From NCBI GenBank assembly GCA_951406725.2, contig OX597827.1, forward strand, positions 23,622,001-23,686,000: a stretch of DNA of 64,000 nt. The letters are read 5' to 3'. A model generated the notes under the pieces. It saw only the letters and a program-made list of their open reading frames with translations. It searched no databases and was not told where the DNA came from. The stretch is from Octopus vulgaris (Eukaryota). A program made the position numbers and the translations under genes. Below, piece by piece: positions 15,466 to 64,000 of the stretch (positions within the stretch are counted from its first letter, which is position 1; the number at the start of each line of letters is the position of its first letter).

Positions 15466-15670
15466 ACATCAACATTAACATCAACATTCACATCCTGTTG
15501 GGCAATTTTCTCGTAGCAGTAAGTCATATCAGCCTTTCGCTAACTGAAATATCTCATCTGTGCTCGCCACGATGACAGATGATAGTAATTCACTGACTGA
15601 ACGAGTTGATCTTGGCCATTGTCTGTTTCTTGTCCGTTCATCTGCCCTGCATCTAATGATATTCGTCATA

Positions 15671-16091
15671 GGCGCCGAGCTGGCAGAATCGTTAGCACGC
15701 CAGGCGAAATGCTTAGCGGTATTTCGTCTGCCGTAACATTCTGAGTTCAAATTCTGCCGAGATCGACTTTGCCTTTCATCCTTTCGGGGTCGATAAATTA
15801 AGTACCAGTTGCACACTGGGTTCGATGTAATCGACTTAATCCGTTTGTCTGTCCTTGTTTGTACCCTCTGTGTTTAGCCCCTTGTGGGTAATAAAGAAAT
15901 AGATATTTCGTCTGCGTTACGTTCTGAGTTCAAATTCCGCCGAGGTCGACTTTGCCTTTCATCTTTTCGGGGTCGATAAATTAAGTACCAGTTGCACACT
16001 GGGGTCGATGTAATCGACTTAATCCGTTTGTCTGTCCTTGTTTGTCCTCTCTGTGTTTAGCCCCTTATGGGTAGTAAAAGAAATAGGTATT
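15671..16091 (+). mobile_element. SINE family A with tandemly duplicated 3' body
   Basis: Head at 15671; body repeated from ~15903. Confidence 0.9.
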
Positions 16092-16544
16092 CGCCATTGA
16101 CTCACATCGATATTGTTCACATCCACCATGCTGCAGCCCATCATTTCAACGTAACCCTGGCTCGAGTGGTTAATGAGACCTTAGGCCATGCCAAGGGGCC
16201 ACCCTTGATTTGGCCCAGGGTTGCTGATTCCAATATTCACAACAGGCTTCTGTTTACATGATAATTAAGCCATGTTGTTATTGTTGTTAAGCAACAAGAT
16301 GGGTAAGGGTGATTAGATGATGGTCTAGGGCTTAGGGGCGGGAGACCCCAGACCTTGGAAAAAAAATCTTTGGTTGTCTTGTTGTAGTCGAGGGCTCTTC
16401 GTTGACGCCTGACACCACTGGGAGGTGGCCCTCGAAGTCGCTGGAAATGGAGATCTCCAGGTCCAAATTCTTGAACGGTCGATAATTAAGCTACAGCTCG
16501 GACACTGACCAGTGTTGCTGCTCTGGGTCAGAGAAGCTCTGTTT

Positions 16545-17438: not shown

Positions 17439-18092
17439 GGCCACAGATTTTCTCCGGAGTCGCTTTTTTGGTAGAAAGTCAAATTTCAGCTTCATTCGAA
17501 TTAAACCAAAGATGCAGTTCGGAGTTATCTCCCTTACATCAATAATTTCTCTCTGTACTCCATGTCTCTTGTTATTGGGCATCAAAGCGTATCTTCTTTA
17601 ATGATGTTTTTTTGCTGAAGCAAAAAACGAGTTAATTGATTCGATCCCCGTGAAATATGGATTTAAATTTGATTGCGTAAAAGACAATTGTCATCTTTGG
17701 ATAGAATATTGTCTCAAACACGATAACAAATCGTTTCTGTATGCGAGTGCGTGTGTGCAAATAGTAAATATCGTGCGTTTTTTTAACATTAGTCCCATAG
17801 AAAGGCAAAATAAGTAAAGAATGACAATTGGGATTCGAACCATTTATCTATTGATTGTTGGTGAATATCACCATCGATCTTTGGGCGACGAAGGGTAAAG
17901 CTGACATCAGCAGGGTTTGAACTCTAAACGTAACGAGATGCTGTTAAATACAATAATGGGTCACCCAAGCGATTCGGCTAATCCAGTACTAATCCTCTCA
18001 TGGTTATTACTGCAGTGTACAACCCTGTCGTGTATTACGGCCGCGGTGTACAGTCTCCCTCGTGTGGTACTACGACCGCAGTAGTCTACCAC

Positions 18093-18512
18093 GGCGGCGA
18101 GCTGGCAGAAACGTTAGCACGCCGGGCGAAATGCGTAGCCGTATTTCGTCTGCCGTTACGTTCTGAGTTCAAATTCCGCCGCGGTCGACTTTGCCTTTCA
18201 TCCTTTCGGGGTCGATTAAATAAGTACCAGTTACGTACTGGGCTCGATGTAATCGACTTAATCCGTGTGTCTATCCTTGTTTGTCCCCTCTGTGCTTAGC
18301 CCCTTGTGGGTGGTAAAGAAATAGGTATTTCGTCTGCCGTTACGTTCTGAGTTCAAATTCCGCCGAGGTCGACTTTGCCTTTCATCCTTTCGGGGTCGAT
18401 TAAATAAGTACCAGTTACGCAGTGGGATCGATATAATCGACTTAATCTGTTTGTCTGTCCTTGTTTGTCCCCTCTGTGTTTGGCCCCTTGTGAGTAGTAA
18501 AGAAATAGGTAT
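18093..18512 (+). mobile_element. SINE family A with duplicated 3' body and 8-bp TSD
   Basis: TSD tctaccac at 18085-18092 and 18513-18520; inserted in a degenerate gtaccact-type minisatellite (18001-18580). Confidence 0.9.
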
Positions 18513-18683
18513 TCTACCACTGTGGCGGTATACCACTCTATGGTGTACCACTCCATTGGGTACTACCACTGAGATGGTGGAATTCGGTTTTGTTTTATTT
18601 TGGGTTCTTTCAAAAATTCGTCTTTTTGGTTGAATCGGTTTGTGTCTAAAAGGCTTCCCTACACGACTGTCCCTTCCCCGCCA

Positions 18684-22096: not shown

Positions 22097-22577
22097 GACG
22101 TTTTAAGCTTAAATCCCTTCGAGGTCAAATTTCGCCATTCATCTTTCCACTATCAATAGAATCAAACACCAACACCAGCCAAATATTCAGCTCAATGATT
22201 ATTGACTGATCCCCTCCTTCCCTTAAATTTGCTGGCCCTGTGTCTTATTAAAAACGATTATCACCATTGTTGTTTCCTCTAAACCTTGACCCCCATAATT
22301 AGTGGCCTACAAAAACAGATGTTTTTTGCTGTTATTTTTTCCCCCTCTCCTAACTGTAACCCTAATGGCGGCCTGCTATAACAAACGCTAAAGTCGATGG
22401 ACAAGACAGAGAAATGCTGCACAGTTGATGCAATGTTAAACATGCATCGTTCATGTGCAGCCAGGGTAAGGTCCTGGCTGATTTTCGCACGTAACACGTA
22501 TTAATATAAGGGTTTCGAATCAGATAAAAAAAATTCAAAGCGTACTGCGATGATGATGATGATATGTGAGAGAGAGC

Positions 22578-22809
22578 GGCGTCGAGCTGGCAGAATCGTT
22601 AGCACACCGGGCGAAATACTTAGCGGTATTTCGCCTGCCGCTACATTCTGAGTTCAAATTCCGCCGAGGTCGACTTTGCCTTTCATCCTTTCGGGGTCGA
22701 TAAATTAAGTACCAGTAACGCACTGAGGTCGATGTAATCGATGTAATCCGTTTGTCTGTCCTTGTTTGTCCCCTCTATGTTTAGCCCCTTGTGGATAGTA
22801 AAGAAATAG
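22578..22809 (+). mobile_element. SINE family A
   Basis: Full head-to-tail match to other copies. Confidence 0.9.
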
Positions 22810-23136
22810 ATGTGTGTGTGAGAGAGAGAGAGATATCATCATCGCCTTTACGTATACTGAGCGTGCTTGCCTGGATCAGAAAGAATTCGTTGTGGTAGAT
22901 TTTCTACAACTTGCTGCCGCTCCTGACACGAATTTTCACCTATTTCCAAACCGAAATATTAATTTCACCATGGTCAGATATGTTTACACAGGAGAGTGGA
23001 AGTGATTGACATTGCCTGAATGACGGTGACACTCGCTTACAATACATACACACAACTACACAGTATGTATGTATGTATGTATGTATGTATGTATGTATGT
23101 ATGTATGTATGTATGTATGTATGTATGTATGTATAC

Positions 23137-26919: not shown

Positions 26920-27313
26920 TGCAAGGCGGCGAGCTGGCAGAAACGTTAGCGCGCCGGGCGAAATGCTTAGCGGTCTGCCGCTACGTTCTGAATTCAAATT
27001 CCGCCGAGGTCTACTTTACCTTTCATCCTTTCGGGGTCGATAAATTAAGTACCAGTTACGCACTGGGGTCGATGTAATCGACTTAATCCGTTTGTCTGTC
27101 CTGGTTTGTCCTCTCTGTATTTAGCCCCTTCTGGGTAGTAAAGAAATAGGTATTTCGTCTGTCTTTATGTTCTGAGTTCAAATTTCGCCGAGGTAGACTT
27201 TGCCTTTCATCCTTTGGGAGTCGATAAATTAATTAGCCGTTGCGTACTGGGGTCGATCTAATCGATTGGCCTCCACCCAAAAAATTTCGGGCCTTGTGCC
27301 TAGAGTTGAAAGG
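26920..27313 (+). mobile_element. SINE family A, composite (two different 3' modules), 14-bp TSD
   Basis: TSD aatatattagtgct at 26906-26919 and 27314-27327. Confidence 0.9.
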
Positions 27314-33420: not shown

Positions 33421-33669
33421 GGTACTATTTAAAAAGAGTGGTCCCAGTGCGCGCACTCGCGTACTCGCGCATCCGCGCTAGCTAGTCGTGACTAATCGAT
33501 CCTACAACGTAAATAAAACAAAATGAATAATTTTTTTACACAAATAATTTTTTTAAACAAAGTAAATAAAACAAAAACACAAAGTAAGGATCGACTAGTC
33601 ACGACTGGCTAGCGCGGATACGCGAGTACGTGAGTGCGCGCACCGGGACCACTCTTCTTAAATAGTCCC
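33421..33669. mobile_element. MITE family M2 (long GC-rich TIRs, GG..CC termini, 8-bp TSD)
   Basis: ~80-bp TIRs ggtactatttaaaaagagtggtccc..ctagtcgtgactaatcgatcct; TSD atttttta on both sides; half copy at ~34313-34398. Confidence 0.9.
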
Positions 33670-35436: not shown

Positions 35437-35601
35437 TACTGGATATAGTATTTGTTGTCGATTGTGGATGTTTTGCTGTGACGTTTCAACGATATTGGAC
35501 TCTCGAGACAGTGTTTGGTAAAATGAAGTTTCGTGGTCCTTTTCTCGTTCAGAACTTTGTTTCATGACACAGTGATCAGGTGACAAATATATACAGAGGA
35601 A

Positions 35602-35835
35602 GGCGGCGAGCTGGCAGAAACGTTAGCACGCCGGAGCGAAATGCTTAGCGATATTTCGTTTGCCGTTACGTTCTGAGTTCAAATTCCGCCGAGGTCGACT
35701 TTGCCTTTCATCCTTTCGGGGTCGATAAATTAAGTACCAGTTACGCACTGGGGTCGATGTAATCGACTTAATCCGTTTGTCTGTCCTTGTTTGTCCTCTC
35801 TGTGTTTAGCCCCTTGTGGTTAGTAAAGAAATGGG
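35602..35835 (+). mobile_element. SINE family A with 13-bp TSD
   Basis: TSD tatatacagagga at 35588-35600 and 35836-35848. Confidence 0.92.
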
Positions 35836-35863
35836 TATATACAGAGGAGTACACACCTTGACA

Positions 35864-35970: not shown

Positions 35971-36404
35971 ATAGGAACTGTTTTATCTATGTATTCATCC
36001 ATTTTAAAGGCAGTATGTTGAAATTTGAATATTTGGCTGCTGTTTCTAACACGTGACCACGTACCCAACCATACCCCTGTTATTAGTATCAACAACAATC
36101 ATAACACACCACAATGTCTTCTAATAACATACATACACTCTAAATTTAATTATAAGTCTTTCTTTATTTGCAAATTGACCGCGAAAAGTCACATAAAGGA
36201 GAGAAATGGACAAAAAGCAACAAGATTGATATTTTTCTACCTAGGGCACGGCATTGACCCCTTCCATCAGTTACACAGTGAAAATACTACAAAGATATCA
36301 TTATTCAAAACACCCGGAGTCTGACAACATTACGTGCATACCCGTAAAACACCTCCAGAAACTACCAACAGCACAGCATAAATACTCCTAAAATAACCCT
36401 GAGA

Positions 36405-36614
36405 CTTTATTTACATTATTTACATTTGACGGATATTTATCCTCATCTTGTTTGTTGTTAACACAACGTTTCGGCTGATATACCCTCCAGCCTTCATCAG
36501 GTGTCTTGGGGAAATTTTGAACCTGGATTCTCATTCCTAAGGTATTTTCCACTGTTATTATTATTATTACTACTAATCCCAAGATTCCGAGTTCGATTCC
36601 AGGCAGTGACCTGA

Positions 36615-36658
<44 letters not shown>

Positions 36659-55930: not shown

Positions 55931-57035
55931 AGTTAATATAATATCAACAATCTGCAATATTCTTCCAATGAGTGAGCCTTTACAATCCAAAAAATAACAA
56001 CCAAATCTCTTCTGTAAATACCGCCTTAAAGAGGGACGGATAGATTAAGCTAAAGGGGTGCTAGATTCAACAATCTAGAAAGAAAAAAAACGATGAGATG
56101 ATCATAATTATGGCGTCCTTGATCATTAGTATGCGCAGAACAATTCAAAAATAGTTACACATTCGACCTTTTGATTTCACGATTATCTCTTTGATGTAGT
56201 AGTAGCAGCAGTAGCAGCAGTAGCAGTAGTAGTAGTAGTAGTAGTAGAACTTTGAGGGATCTGGACTCAACCATCTGCAATTTAAATGTAGTGGATTTAT
56301 TCTTATTTATTTAATTATTTTACTTACATCCCCCTTGTGTCCTTCCGTCGGTTCTAAATTACTCACATCCCGTCATTATACACAGCAACTTAAACTATGG
56401 CAATATATATATGTGTGTGTGTGTGTGTGGTTGTTAGTGATGGCGGAAATAATCAGTTTATGGACACCAGACAATTGTTTTCAGCAGACAGTGGGAGGGC
56501 TAAAATATTGAATTGAAAACAAAATGAATGGATAGAATAAATTGTAAAAATAAAGATGAAATAATTTCTAAAATCGTTGCCGTCGTAGAATAAAGATAAG
56601 CCAGCAACTAAGCTAGATTGGGATTTACTTTCGAATCTGGTTCTGAATGAATCCATTTTATAATTGCATTGCAAACTATTTGCCATTAGTGTTGTTGAAG
56701 GACAATGAATGGAATCAATGGCGATATTTAGTTATGGACCTTTGCCGCCTTAATTCAAATCCTGCCGTGATAAAATTTTGCTTTTCGTTCATCTGATATC
56801 GATGGAATAAAGTACTAAAGTCGATTTAATCGACTAACCCCTTCCTACGAGTATGTTATCGTGCTTGTGCCTATGTTAGAAATGGTTATTAAAAGACGGT
56901 GATTCGGGAGAGCAACATACAAAATGTTTTGCGGAATTTTGTTGCGTACCTTTGCATTCTGGTTTCTCCAGTTCCACTCCTATCTGTATATAACTTGGAG
57001 AGGAATTGACACCACTAAAATAACCTAACTCTAGA

Positions 57036-57179
57036 ACATTATTTACACTAGACGGATATTTGTCCTCATCTTGTTTGTTGTTAACACAACGTTTCGGCTG
57101 ATATGCCCTCCAGCCTTCATCGAGTGTCCTAGGAATTTTCGAACCTGGGTTCTCATTCCGAAGGTATTCTTCGATGTTG

Positions 57180-57213
<34 letters not shown>

Positions 57214-57290
57214 AGTCACTGCTTGGAAGCGAACTCGGAATCTTGGGGTTAGTGGCTCGCACTCTTAATTACTACGCCATAGAACTGTGT
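57036..57290 (-). mobile_element. Family H retroposon, complete: tRNA-like head + (TAA)n + hammerhead body, 10-bp TSD
   Basis: Minus strand A-box-like tggcgtagtaatt, B-box-like gagttcgcttcc, (taa)n, then body; TSD taactctaga at 57026-57035 and 57291-57300. Confidence 0.85.
57083..57128 (-). ncRNA. Family H hammerhead motif with mutated core (UCGAUGA)
   Basis: GACAC UCGAUGA A GGCUG GAGGGCAUAU CAGCC GAAA CG UU GUGUU. Confidence 0.65.
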
Positions 57291-58665
57291 TAACTCTAGA
57301 TATTATACACTACAAAAACATGGCGTCTTCCGTAATGCTCCAATGACCAAAAAGAATTGAGATTATGAGACAACACGTATACTAACAAGGTTATTAGGCA
57401 TGTCAGCTACCTGACGGAAATACGTGATGTCAGTAAAAAGACGACATTATTTTTTTTCATACGAATGAGAAGATGAAGGATAAGGAGAATGTCTATGATC
57501 TCCTCTGAAGATGATGGAAGGGAAAGACCTGCCCTGAATACTGTGACAAAGTGGACTCCACTAAAGGTGCCTGATGGCAAAGTGGTGTTAAATCAGATGA
57601 ACGTTTAAGTCTACCACCCCAAACCGGAACGGTTTATCCGACGGGCCTCTATAGTTTGTTTACCAAATTCCACGCACAATACTTTGGTAGACCCATGACT
57701 ATGGTGGAGAATACTACATCACCCAGAGTGCAATGTTGTGGGATTGAATCGAAATTAACATAATTGCAAAACGAACTTCTTAACCTCACGATCATACTTG
57801 CATCTTGTTCGCCTATCAATCCTCTTAACTGCTTAAAAATAGTTAATAAAATCAATACTGTAGTCACAGACAACACTAGGTAGAAATAGGTACCAGCTCA
57901 AGTGTGGTTCAATCTCAGATCACAGTCCTCTTAGCTGTCAGAAATGTGTATGAGCAGTCTAATAACAGCAGTGTATGTGTCATGGCCAGTGTGTTGAACA
58001 GTCTATTCCATGCTAATTATCATTTAGACAACATACTTTACCATGCCTAAAATTTTACTTTAAATATATGCTGAATATTGGTTCTATAATGCCTTAAGGC
58101 TACAACTGATTCCATTGCAGCCAAAATAAGTGATTCTTTACATTTTCTCCTGTTGAAACATTTTGGATTTTCTGTTCATATTGTAAGTTTTATTGTTATT
58201 TTATTTTTTTTAGTTTCCCTTCTCCTCTTCCCATCACTCACTCTCTGACTCATGCACTCTCATCGTTACCTTACCCTTACATCACATTCTCTCTTTTCCT
58301 TCGTCTCCTCACCCCTTTTCACTCCCACCTCTATTCCTGACCCTTCTTTACCCCTCCACCCCACCTCACCCGCGCCTGTATTACCACCACAACCCTCATC
58401 CTCCAACTCCTTTTCTTCTACCACCTTTCTCCTTCTCTTCCAACAAACACACACATGCGCGCACACACATACATATATAAGCACACACAAACACACATAT
58501 AAGCACACACACACACACATATCAACAGTCGATCATCGTCTGCTTCTTCCAGACGTAAACTCTTCCCCCTCCTTCCTCCACAACATCTACTCCCACCCAT
58601 ACTCCTTCTTCAATACCACTTACACCCTATTCCTCATGTACACGTGCACACACACGCACACACAC

Positions 58666-59616: not shown

Positions 59617-60010
59617 TGTATATATATATATATGTATGTATGTATATGTGTGTGTGTGTATACAGCGAGAGAGGCAGAGTGAGACATAGTCAGGGAGATG
59701 TGTGGAAGTTTACGAATGTTAAAATGTTTTTGTGCGTCATTGTTATAAGTTGGTTTAGTGTACCATTCAAACTTTTATGCGTGTATAATATTTATACATG
59801 GGAGTATTGATCAGTATGTGTGTGTGCGTGTTAAAGAGAGAGATTGTGTGCCCCAGCATGGCCACAGCCTCTGGCTGAAAAATGACAATGGAGTAATAGA
59901 ATGTGTGGAAAGGAGAGAATCTGTGGCATACGTGTGTGAAAATGTACGATACGAAATATGAGTGACAGAATGTGTGTTTGAGCGCTTGTGTATGTACTTC
60001 TTACATTATA

Positions 60011-60245
60011 ATACCTATTTCTTTATTGCCCACAAGGGGCTAAACACAGAGAGGACAAACAAGGACAGACAAACGGATTAAGTCGATTATATCGACCCCA
60101 GTGCGTAACTGGTACTTATTTAATCGAGACCGAAAGGATGAAAGGCAAAGTCGACCTCGGTGGAATTTGAACTCAGAACGTAGCGGCAGACGAAATACCT
60201 CTAAGCATTTCACCCGGCGTTCTGTCGATTCTGCCAACTCACCGC
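60011..60245 (-). mobile_element. SINE family A
   Basis: Full reverse-complement match. Confidence 0.9.
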
Positions 60246-62382: not shown

Positions 62383-62649
62383 GTTCAATATCACTTCTTT
62401 ATTGTTTGTCAATTGGTTAAATATCTAACCGACAAATTGATCGTTTGTTGAATGTGCCGGTTAAATGGTTATTACTGTTGTATTTCCTCGTCATATAGAT
62501 GTCAGACGAGCGGCTAACTTCGCATTATAGCTTGTTACAATTTTGTACTTCCAGACAACAATATTATACTGGGTGTATTCTAATTTCTATATTTTAGAGA
62601 TGAGGAATTCTGTACATTGGATGGATATGTCCTCATCTAGTTTGTTGTA

Positions 62650-62695
62650 ACCACAACGTTTCGGCTGATTTACTCTCCAGCCTTCATCAGGTGTC
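62650..62695 (-). ncRNA. Family H hammerhead, intact core
   Basis: GACAC CUGAUGA A GGCUG GAGAGUAAAU CAGCC GAAA CG UU GUGGU (one stem I mismatch). Confidence 0.75.
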
Positions 62696-62781
62696 CTGAG
62701 GAAATTTTGAGCCCAACCCTGGGTTCTCATTCCCAAAGTAATTTTTTTTTTGCTGGTGTTATTATTATTATTATTATTATT

Positions 62782-63347: not shown

Positions 63348-63348
63348 A

Positions 63349-63399
<51 letters not shown>

Positions 63400-63610
63400 C
63401 ATTATTATTATCATTATTATTATTATTATCATTATTATTATTATTTTTTCAAGGCACTGCCTGGAATTGAACTCAGAATCCTGTGGTTCAATTCCGAGTT
63501 CAATTCCAGGCAGTGCCTTAAATAAATAAATAATAATAATAATAACAATAACACCAGCAAAAAAATACCTTAGGAATGAGAACCCAGGGCTGGGTTCAAA
63601 ATTCCGCCAT

Positions 63611-63657
63611 GACACCTGATGAAGGCTTGGAGAGTAAATCAGCCGAACCATTGTGAT
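63611..63657 (+). ncRNA. Family H hammerhead, degenerate (GAAC-CA-UU)
   Basis: GACAC CUGAUGA A GGCUUG GAGAGUAAAU CAGCC GAAC CA UU GUGAU. Confidence 0.55.
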
Positions 63658-64000
63658 AACAACAAACAAGATGAGAACACATGTCCATTCATTGTAAATA
63701 ATGTAAATAATGTGTTCTCATTTATTTCCTAATTTTATTCTTAGGCTCCACCGATAGTCCATTGATTGATCAATCTCGGTATTTCTATCTTTATTCATCT
63801 TTATTCATTGTCATCACTCATACATGTACACTACTGGCACAAGATATTACATGGCCATGTTGGTGGTAACTAAAGTGACATCCCCTGCCAGGTTAGTCGG
63901 GTAAGGAGAGGTGCTTTGCAATTACTTGGTTTCAGGACTACTGCTGCCACATGGCCATACTGGGGCACCACCTTGAAGGGTTTCAGTCGAACAAATCAAC

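Follow-up and report, generated by a model that had tools for sequence, protein, structure and literature searches.

A probable Penelope-like pseudo-LTR carrying a tRNA-Arg-like segment and a minimal hammerhead motif in Octopus vulgaris

Background

Penelope-like elements (PLEs) of the EN+ kind, such as those of the Penelope/Poseidon type and the anole element PAc, carry a single ORF in which a reverse transcriptase (RT) domain is followed by a GIY-YIG domain, and a pseudo-LTR (pLTR) with a minimal hammerhead that overlaps the ORF start (Frangieh et al. 2024, PMC11167929; Arkhipova et al. 2013, PMC3846280). They also show an optional tail, inverted and solo pLTRs, a 5' palindrome and target-site duplications (TSDs) of 8 to 10 bp (PMC11167929, PMC3846280, PMC8557442). 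In PAc, the hammerhead contains the ORF start, and there are two sites within the ORF at which reverse transcription begins; insertion proceeds without need for cleavage, and no reads end at the cut site (PMC11167929). The hammerheads of metazoan PLEs have a helix I of 5 bp, G10.1-C11.1, a palindromic 15.2-16.2, an extra base between positions 9 and 10.1, and no loop 3; most occur singly, and a link to truncated PLEs is drawn by the authors (Cervera & de la Pena 2014, PMC4209133).

The octopus family described here is like EN+ PLEs in domain order, in the hammerhead that overlaps the ORF start and in its insertion features, although its likeness to the Penelope/Poseidon type rests on domain order and resemblance and not on a tree with named elements. 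It is unlike them in that the 5' part of its pLTR is a tRNA-Arg-derived segment with A and B boxes, followed by a (TAA)n run. The promoters described for EN+ PLEs are TATA/Inr-like or TATA-less and LINE-like, with no tRNA segment described in the accessible parts of the sources (PMC11167929, PMC3846280); the one Penelope promoter that has been mapped, that of D. virilis, is TATA-less and LINE-like (PMC2377424).

The pairing of a tRNA-like head with a hammerhead is already known. The schistosome elements Sm-alpha and Sj-alpha (PMC6765202, PMC2770079) are likewise short, high-copy elements with a tRNA-related, Pol III-type head; however, their hammerheads are canonical, often tandem, and cleave multimers, and an autonomous parent with the same head is not described in the parts of these papers available to us. 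Small-RNA-derived Pol III promoters also lie in the terminal repeats of the TRIMp3 elements Cassandra, Helenus and Ajax, that of Helenus being a tRNA (Kojima 2024, PMC10886601). These are non-autonomous LTR elements, for whose autonomous partners PMC10886601 argues that Pol II must be used, whereas in octopus the tRNA segment sits in the terminal repeat of the protein-coding PLE itself. Non-LTR retrozymes (PMC7229834; bioRxiv 10.64898/2026.07.22.740005) and non-autonomous Chlamys such as MRC1 (PMC8557442) are short, non-coding and share pLTR sequence, as the octopus copies do, but they form tandem units and no tRNA head is mentioned for them in the accessible text, whereas the octopus copies are single or inverted and inseparable from an autonomous parent. 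Finally, the octopus SINEs OK, OR1 and OR2 (Ohshima & Okada 1994) have tRNA-derived heads too and probably come from the same animal group. OR2 is a CORE-SINE (PMC4758252), and the present family may have been named earlier as a SINE, such as OK or OR1. An octopus repeat annotation (PMC13282606) makes no mention of hammerheads in its text and one supplement.

What appears to be new is the tRNA-derived segment inside the pLTR of an autonomous PLE. It was not found in the full-text literature searched, outside which lie most subscription papers, Repbase, Dfam and SINEBase, and this is no proof of novelty. Mapped promoters exist for very few PLEs, and the family offers a test of Pol III use by a PLE, with a candidate tRNA-derived promoter, a hammerhead, an ORF start and both priming sites within about 300 nt, and tens of thousands of natural ends to count. 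It also allows one to test by what route an autonomous element can give a SINE-like family with no new fusion. For annotation, automatic tools would take such PLE ends for SINEs.

Results and discussion

Anatomy of the focal repeat

The window analysed here is the whole stretch of 64,000 nt, and the focal repeat occupies 255 bases of it, read from 57290 to 57036 on the minus strand (Table 1). The original prediction had described a minus-strand tRNA-like head with A- and B-box-like motifs, a (TAA)n run and a hammerhead, flanked by a 10-bp direct repeat; all of these lie at the positions claimed, and the two copies of the repeat are identical. Within the duplication, the element ends on one side at the short 3' end of the family, and on the other side carries a 10-nt inverted piece of the long 3' end, so that the focal copy also has a 3' end on both sides. 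Directly before the short 3' end (body positions ~130-150; 57036-57050 in the window), a 9-nt unit is present in one to several copies; it preserves the ORF frame and may be a mark of slippage at the priming site.

The focal hammerhead has a helix I of 5 bp, a 6-bp helix II, GAAA-CG-UU and one extra A ahead of helix II. Its core reads UCGAUGA, not CUGAUGA (a C3/U4 change), and with a U at position 3 this damaged core is likely to be inactive. Four copies in the window carry the motif, as had been noted, and the cores at 36.46 kb and 62.65 kb are intact, while the 63.6-kb copy has GAAC in place of GAAA. One detail needed correction: the B box quoted for the 36.6-kb copy belongs to its inverted arm, on the strand opposite to that copy's hammerhead.

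Table 1. Coordinates of the focal repeat and of the other family loci in the 64-kb window
Feature	Position	Strand	Remarks
TSD, 3' side of the element	57026..57035	.	10-mer TAACTCTAGA, identical to 57291-57300
Body, 3' part of the pLTR, overlapping the PLE ORF start	57036..57175	-	Runs up to the short 3' end
Minimal type I hammerhead motif	57083..57128	-	Predicted cut between 57088 and 57087
ATG of the PLE ORF, in the body	57156-57154	-	Frame shifted in the focal copy
(TAA)n/(CAA)n run joining head and body	57176..57210	-	Length highly variable; frequent insertions by other elements
tRNA-Arg-like pLTR segment	57211..57281	-	Collinear with genomic tRNA-Arg; cloverleaf decayed; first ~6 nt gone in the focal copy
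B-box-like motif	57225..57236	-	One change from the family's commonest letters
A-box-like motif	57269..57279	-	Two changes from the family's commonest letters
Minimal second arm: inverted 10-nt piece of the long 3' end (PLE 'tail') of the family	57279..57288	+	Opposite-strand match to the end of the body profile
TSD, 5' side of the element	57291..57300	.	10-mer TAACTCTAGA, same as 57026-57035
Second family locus: body with intact core	36400-36549	-	Plus an inverted head arm from 36570 on, strand + (locus 36400..36648)
Third family locus: body with intact core and tail	62585..62745	-	A different repeat upstream of the (TAA)n run
Fourth family locus: head-to-head pair	63348..63723	+	Truncated head on minus, head and body on plus; core damaged

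The hammerhead motif

An exact 29-mer of the hammerhead occurs 2,811 times in the genome, against 0 occurrences of the reversed control. A descriptor of minimal hammerheads (core boxes, helices I and II) matches the family's commonest form and two window copies, not the focal copy. The assignment to the minimal PLE type stands, in that every feature listed for such hammerheads in the accessible part of PMC4209133 is present; the octopus motif shows no difference from them.

The fold by itself is no evidence: folding of the hammerhead monomer gave a non-significant z of -1.3, and Rfam returned 0 hammerhead or tRNA matches at E<=1 across the window and at E<=10 in one well-kept copy. Covariation could not be demonstrated, the family copies being too similar to inform. 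An intact core is present in only 22 of 68 unanchored arms. The sole common non-CpG change within the core falls at the free position 7, which may hint slightly at constraint on the RNA motif; in the protein it is a conservative replacement. Coding sequence overlaps the core and is another possible cause of its conservation. No RNA read ends were found at the predicted cut site in three RNA-seq runs (fragmented cDNA, about 6% read).

The tRNA-Arg-like head

The head is collinear with the tRNA-Arg(TCG/TCT) of the genome (z of 8.4 and 9.3), and these were the two top scores among 10 tRNAs compared, drawn from 30 found in the genome; Ala-TGC scored close behind. The commonest letters of the family spell good A and B boxes spaced as in a tRNA, with decayed stems, and ARAGORN reported no tRNA in the window nor in any of 16 family loci. 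Linkage of head and body was confirmed in 28 of 30 and 22 of 30 matches picked by the head, while only 52 of 90 arms picked by the hammerhead have the head directly upstream (hand count).

LINE-type ORFs, which we take to be of the R4/Dong kind, and another short repeat often land in the (TAA)n run and split head from body (L027:1240-1500, L323, L288, L263 and L304, with insertions upstream of the run or within it); the run is a landing site.

As for a donor SINE with the same head, only this PLE family came up at E<0.001 in the window and 800 kb of evenly spaced stretches, other tRNA-headed repeats of that sample having E>0.02 against the head. Elsewhere in the genome, locus L176 (G000:C12:25267077-25270148) holds seven tRNA-Cys-like genes or pseudogenes clustered in 3 kb.

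An autonomous parent

Coding sequence was present upstream in one (L011) of 30 loci picked by the body. A search with this coding sequence gave 30 loci, of which 26 have the tRNA-like head right behind the stop codon (BLAST), and over all ORF-picked loci the head continues past the ORF end in 67 of 73 distinct arms. L011 itself is without spacer and head, probably through a deletion. One natural copy holds an open frame of 568 aa with an RT (Pfam E 2.7e-6, just under the cut-off, with relatives above it). The C-terminus of this frame aligns with the Pfam GIY-YIG domains of the relatives P0069, P0073 and P0096; Pfam gave no GIY-YIG or other match for the C-terminal fragment of the query itself, and a search of solved structures with the ORF yielded weak RT matches only.

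In the near-full copies L227 and L214, body and tail read in frame into the ORF. Translated, the body aligns with the N-terminus of P0003, a relative of 847 aa (37% over 119 aa, E 3e-20), and the alignment takes in residues that overlap the hammerhead. The body therefore derives from a PLE and not from a LINE, as had been proposed, since it codes for the ORF N-terminus. A LINE-tailed SINE was also considered, and was discarded on the same ground.

In the full element, the ORF and its stop are followed by a 23-nt spacer, the tRNA-like segment, (TAA)n, the ATG, the hammerhead motif, the short 3' end, the tail and finally the long 3' end; in L227 the arrangement is body-ORF-head-body. As in EN+ PLEs, the RT is followed by a C-terminal GIY-YIG, and the pLTR repeats the 3' end and overlaps the ORF start. 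Four copies extend to the ORF start. Three set in downstream of the predicted cut site, one is a body without head, and none has a complete head-bearing 5' pLTR directly ahead of a full ORF. When an outside relative was used to look for a sister PLE family lacking the head, all 30 loci returned belonged to the same family.

Since the head follows the ORF stop and the body is the ORF start, the 'SINE' is the pseudo-LTR of a PLE. The Penelope RT and GIY-YIG had been proposed as the mover, and this is upheld. The idea of a separate non-autonomous SINE with a borrowed PLE end has to be given up: the head is part of the autonomous pLTR in the same 67 of 73 ORF-bearing arms, and the body is the ORF N-terminus. 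We consider that the focal repeat is probably a solo pseudo-LTR of an autonomous PLE with RT and GIY-YIG, in which a tRNA-Arg-derived segment of the pLTR is the likely internal Pol III start.

Signature of insertion

Insertions were sampled at 90 loci anchored on the hammerhead 29-mer and 30 anchored on a 22-mer of the head, all on the first contig; 12 of these 120 were removed as duplicates. Head-to-head inverted arms were found at 69 of the remaining 108 loci. The 3' ends cluster at body positions ~140-155 and ~170-175, about 25 nt apart, and a long 3' end is paired with a short one in 49 of 60 inverted pairs. Direct repeats of 8 to 15 nt flank 32 of 95 scorable loci, nearly all of them inverted, against 2.5% of mismatched flank pairs. 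Inverted pLTRs, an optional tail and short, variable TSDs are thus all present; together, the inverted arms, the two 3' ends and the short repeats indicate insertion in the PLE way, with the features in print for PLEs.

A non-LTR retrozyme, that is, a tandem hammerhead repeat spread via self-cleaved and circularised RNA, would share with the family a type I hammerhead with a palindromic helix III, and retrozymes are themselves proposed to be PLE derivatives (bioRxiv 10.64898/2026.07.22.740005). However, over the 120 anchored loci the copies are single or head-to-head, with no tandem arrays, they end at the PLE tail sites, about 50 and 85 nt past the cut site and not at it, and no read ends at the cut site in the fragmented-cDNA RNA-seq. 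We hold this origin to be extremely improbable.

Abundance and the excess of short copies

The family was found in 8 of 80 evenly spaced 10-kb stretches, which corresponds to about 28,000 loci in the 2.8-Gb genome (Poisson range 12,000 to 55,000). The hammerhead 29-mer is retained by 4 of 56 arms picked without it, which leads to about 39,000 arms, with a wide error. Exact 22-mers are more numerous in the head (2,747) than at the stop/spacer 75 nt upstream (922); roughly corrected for decay, the ratio of short to ORF-linked copies is about 14:1, and overall the excess is about 6- to 14-fold.

The 5' ends were placed for 116 distinct head-bearing arms: 32 end inside the head, 66 at -17 to +5 of the first tRNA base, one at -42, and 17 reach the ORF. 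The ends are thus fixed at the head start, as in SINEs, in 66 of the 84 arms that reach it, and 6 of the other 18 end within the next ~330 nt. Ten arms lie at -14 to -17; by eye, most of these are fold-backs whose inverted head resembles the spacer, and the true limit is thus about -8. Twelve arms begin at +1, the first tRNA base.

Such copies could belong to an independent tRNA-derived SINE with its own master copies, which would use the Penelope proteins in trans and whose ORF-linked heads would be secondary. The 6- to 14-fold excess of short copies speaks for it, as does their slightly lower divergence (confounded by the way in which they were picked), and recopying of any solo pLTR that has an internal promoter is conceivable in principle. 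The variants argue otherwise. In a comparison of 114 short with 60 ORF-linked arms (12 ambiguous arms excluded), three non-CpG variants have frequencies of 14/57, 10/60 and 21/56 in ORF-linked arms against 27/113, 18/113 and 47/112 in short ones, and no variant is diagnostic of the short copies. CpG sites alone differ, the ORF-linked arms being more decayed. Equal variant frequencies imply that short and ORF-bearing copies come from the same sources, with no independent SINE lineage. Moreover, the head is fixed in the autonomous family (67/73), and the body is an ORF start. Taken together, this makes a SINE with its own masters very unlikely. Judged from their sequences, the short copies are not a lineage distinct from an autonomous partner, the whole element lying within the PLE; they are SINE-like in structure and PLE-like in insertion, and by membership they are a PLE pseudo-LTR.

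A probable Pol III start at the head

How could a pLTR give rise to so many copies that stop at the head? If the tRNA segment is a Pol III start, the RNA would begin between about -8 and +5 of the tRNA. The PLE protein would nick AT-rich DNA and prime reverse transcription at one of two sites within the ORF start, as in the anole element. With priming in the upstream pLTR, the cDNA would run out at the 5' end of the RNA after about 260 to 300 nt, giving a copy of SINE size. The inverted arm would come from fold-back of the cDNA at the 5' palindrome, or from a second priming event on the other strand, and in either case both ends of the insertion would be 3' ends, one short and one long. Since the copies span the hammerhead, the template was likely uncut; the ribozyme would act only as a dimer or with the help of protein.

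Transcription starting at the tRNA segment would explain the pile-up of 5' ends, and so would self-priming at the palindrome that spans the spacer and the head start: the pile-up coincides with this palindrome, and 5' palindromes are a known pLTR feature that gives fold-back without Pol III. The tRNA segment would then be a passenger that goes back to a single capture of a tRNA or SINE head behind the ORF, with transcription by Pol II or read-through, and with fold-back at the palindrome stopping the cDNA at the head start; the family would be an ordinary PLE with a captured head. Many junctions are indeed exact fold-backs at the palindrome. Rotifer pLTRs have 5' palindromes of 18 to 38 bp and occur as solo pLTRs, with no tRNA reported in the accessible parts of PMC3846280 and PMC8557442, and the promoter in D. 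virilis is LINE-like (PMC2377424). The three runs of fragmented-cDNA RNA-seq showed no discrete RNA. Against this, starts at -7 to +5 are also seen in about 12 arms that lack an inverted head and whose upstream flank is unrelated, 12 arms cluster at +1, the hairpin is weak (z of -1.2 for the copy folded), and the family's commonest letters keep both boxes whole although the stems are decayed. A passenger segment is a possible reading, though clearly the less probable one. Because uninverted copies start at the same place, and because the boxes were kept and the stems were not, we favour a Pol III start over self-priming at the palindrome, and infer it to be roughly twice as likely.

The RNA data come from three runs of one study (fragmented cDNA, about 6% of each read), in which no peaks of starts or ends mark a discrete transcript. 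Depth is equal in both directions, and 76 to 82% of reads continue into unrelated flanks, a profile that fits passive transcription of many copies.

Runs of four T would be expected to act as terminators on a Pol III transcript. On the sense strand, 23 such runs were counted in 60.8 kb (37 copies), against 73 in approximate dinucleotide shuffles, and none is present in more than three copies; in majority columns there are 0, with 2.4 to 2.9 expected (P 0.03-0.08). By frame, PLE open frames have 25 T runs against 47 expected, and other frames 172 against 164, although the test is weak, as copies are not independent and A-rich LINE frames in the control are also somewhat low. The lack of T4 terminators on the sense strand is at most suggestive. 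The ORF of about 2.3 kb has no shared four-T run on this strand, and one might go further and suppose that the autonomous PLE is itself a Pol III unit through that ORF, with the hammerhead/pLTR structure aiding cap-independent translation. We consider this unlikely; if true, a protein-coding retrotransposon would be its own SINE, and SINEs of the Sm-alpha type, with tRNA plus hammerhead, might be orphaned pLTRs of such elements.

Other observations on copies and window

Head-to-head pairs such as that at L052:1450-2140 are transcribed passively both ways, and would make double-stranded RNA. In the reads of this locus, A>G and T>C are the commonest differences, and copy variants and editing are indistinguishable there.

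Besides the PLE family, the window contains a separate high-copy family with a unit of about 180 to 240 bp, present as single units and partial tandems at 1932-2116, 15670-16092, 18090-18516, 22577-22811, 26922-27265, 35600-35841 and 60007-60245. At 33452-33638 lies a long inverted repeat, nearly perfect, whose arms are GC-rich and whose middle is AT-rich; its Rfam miRNA matches are weak and below the cut-off, and it looks like a MITE or a foldback element.
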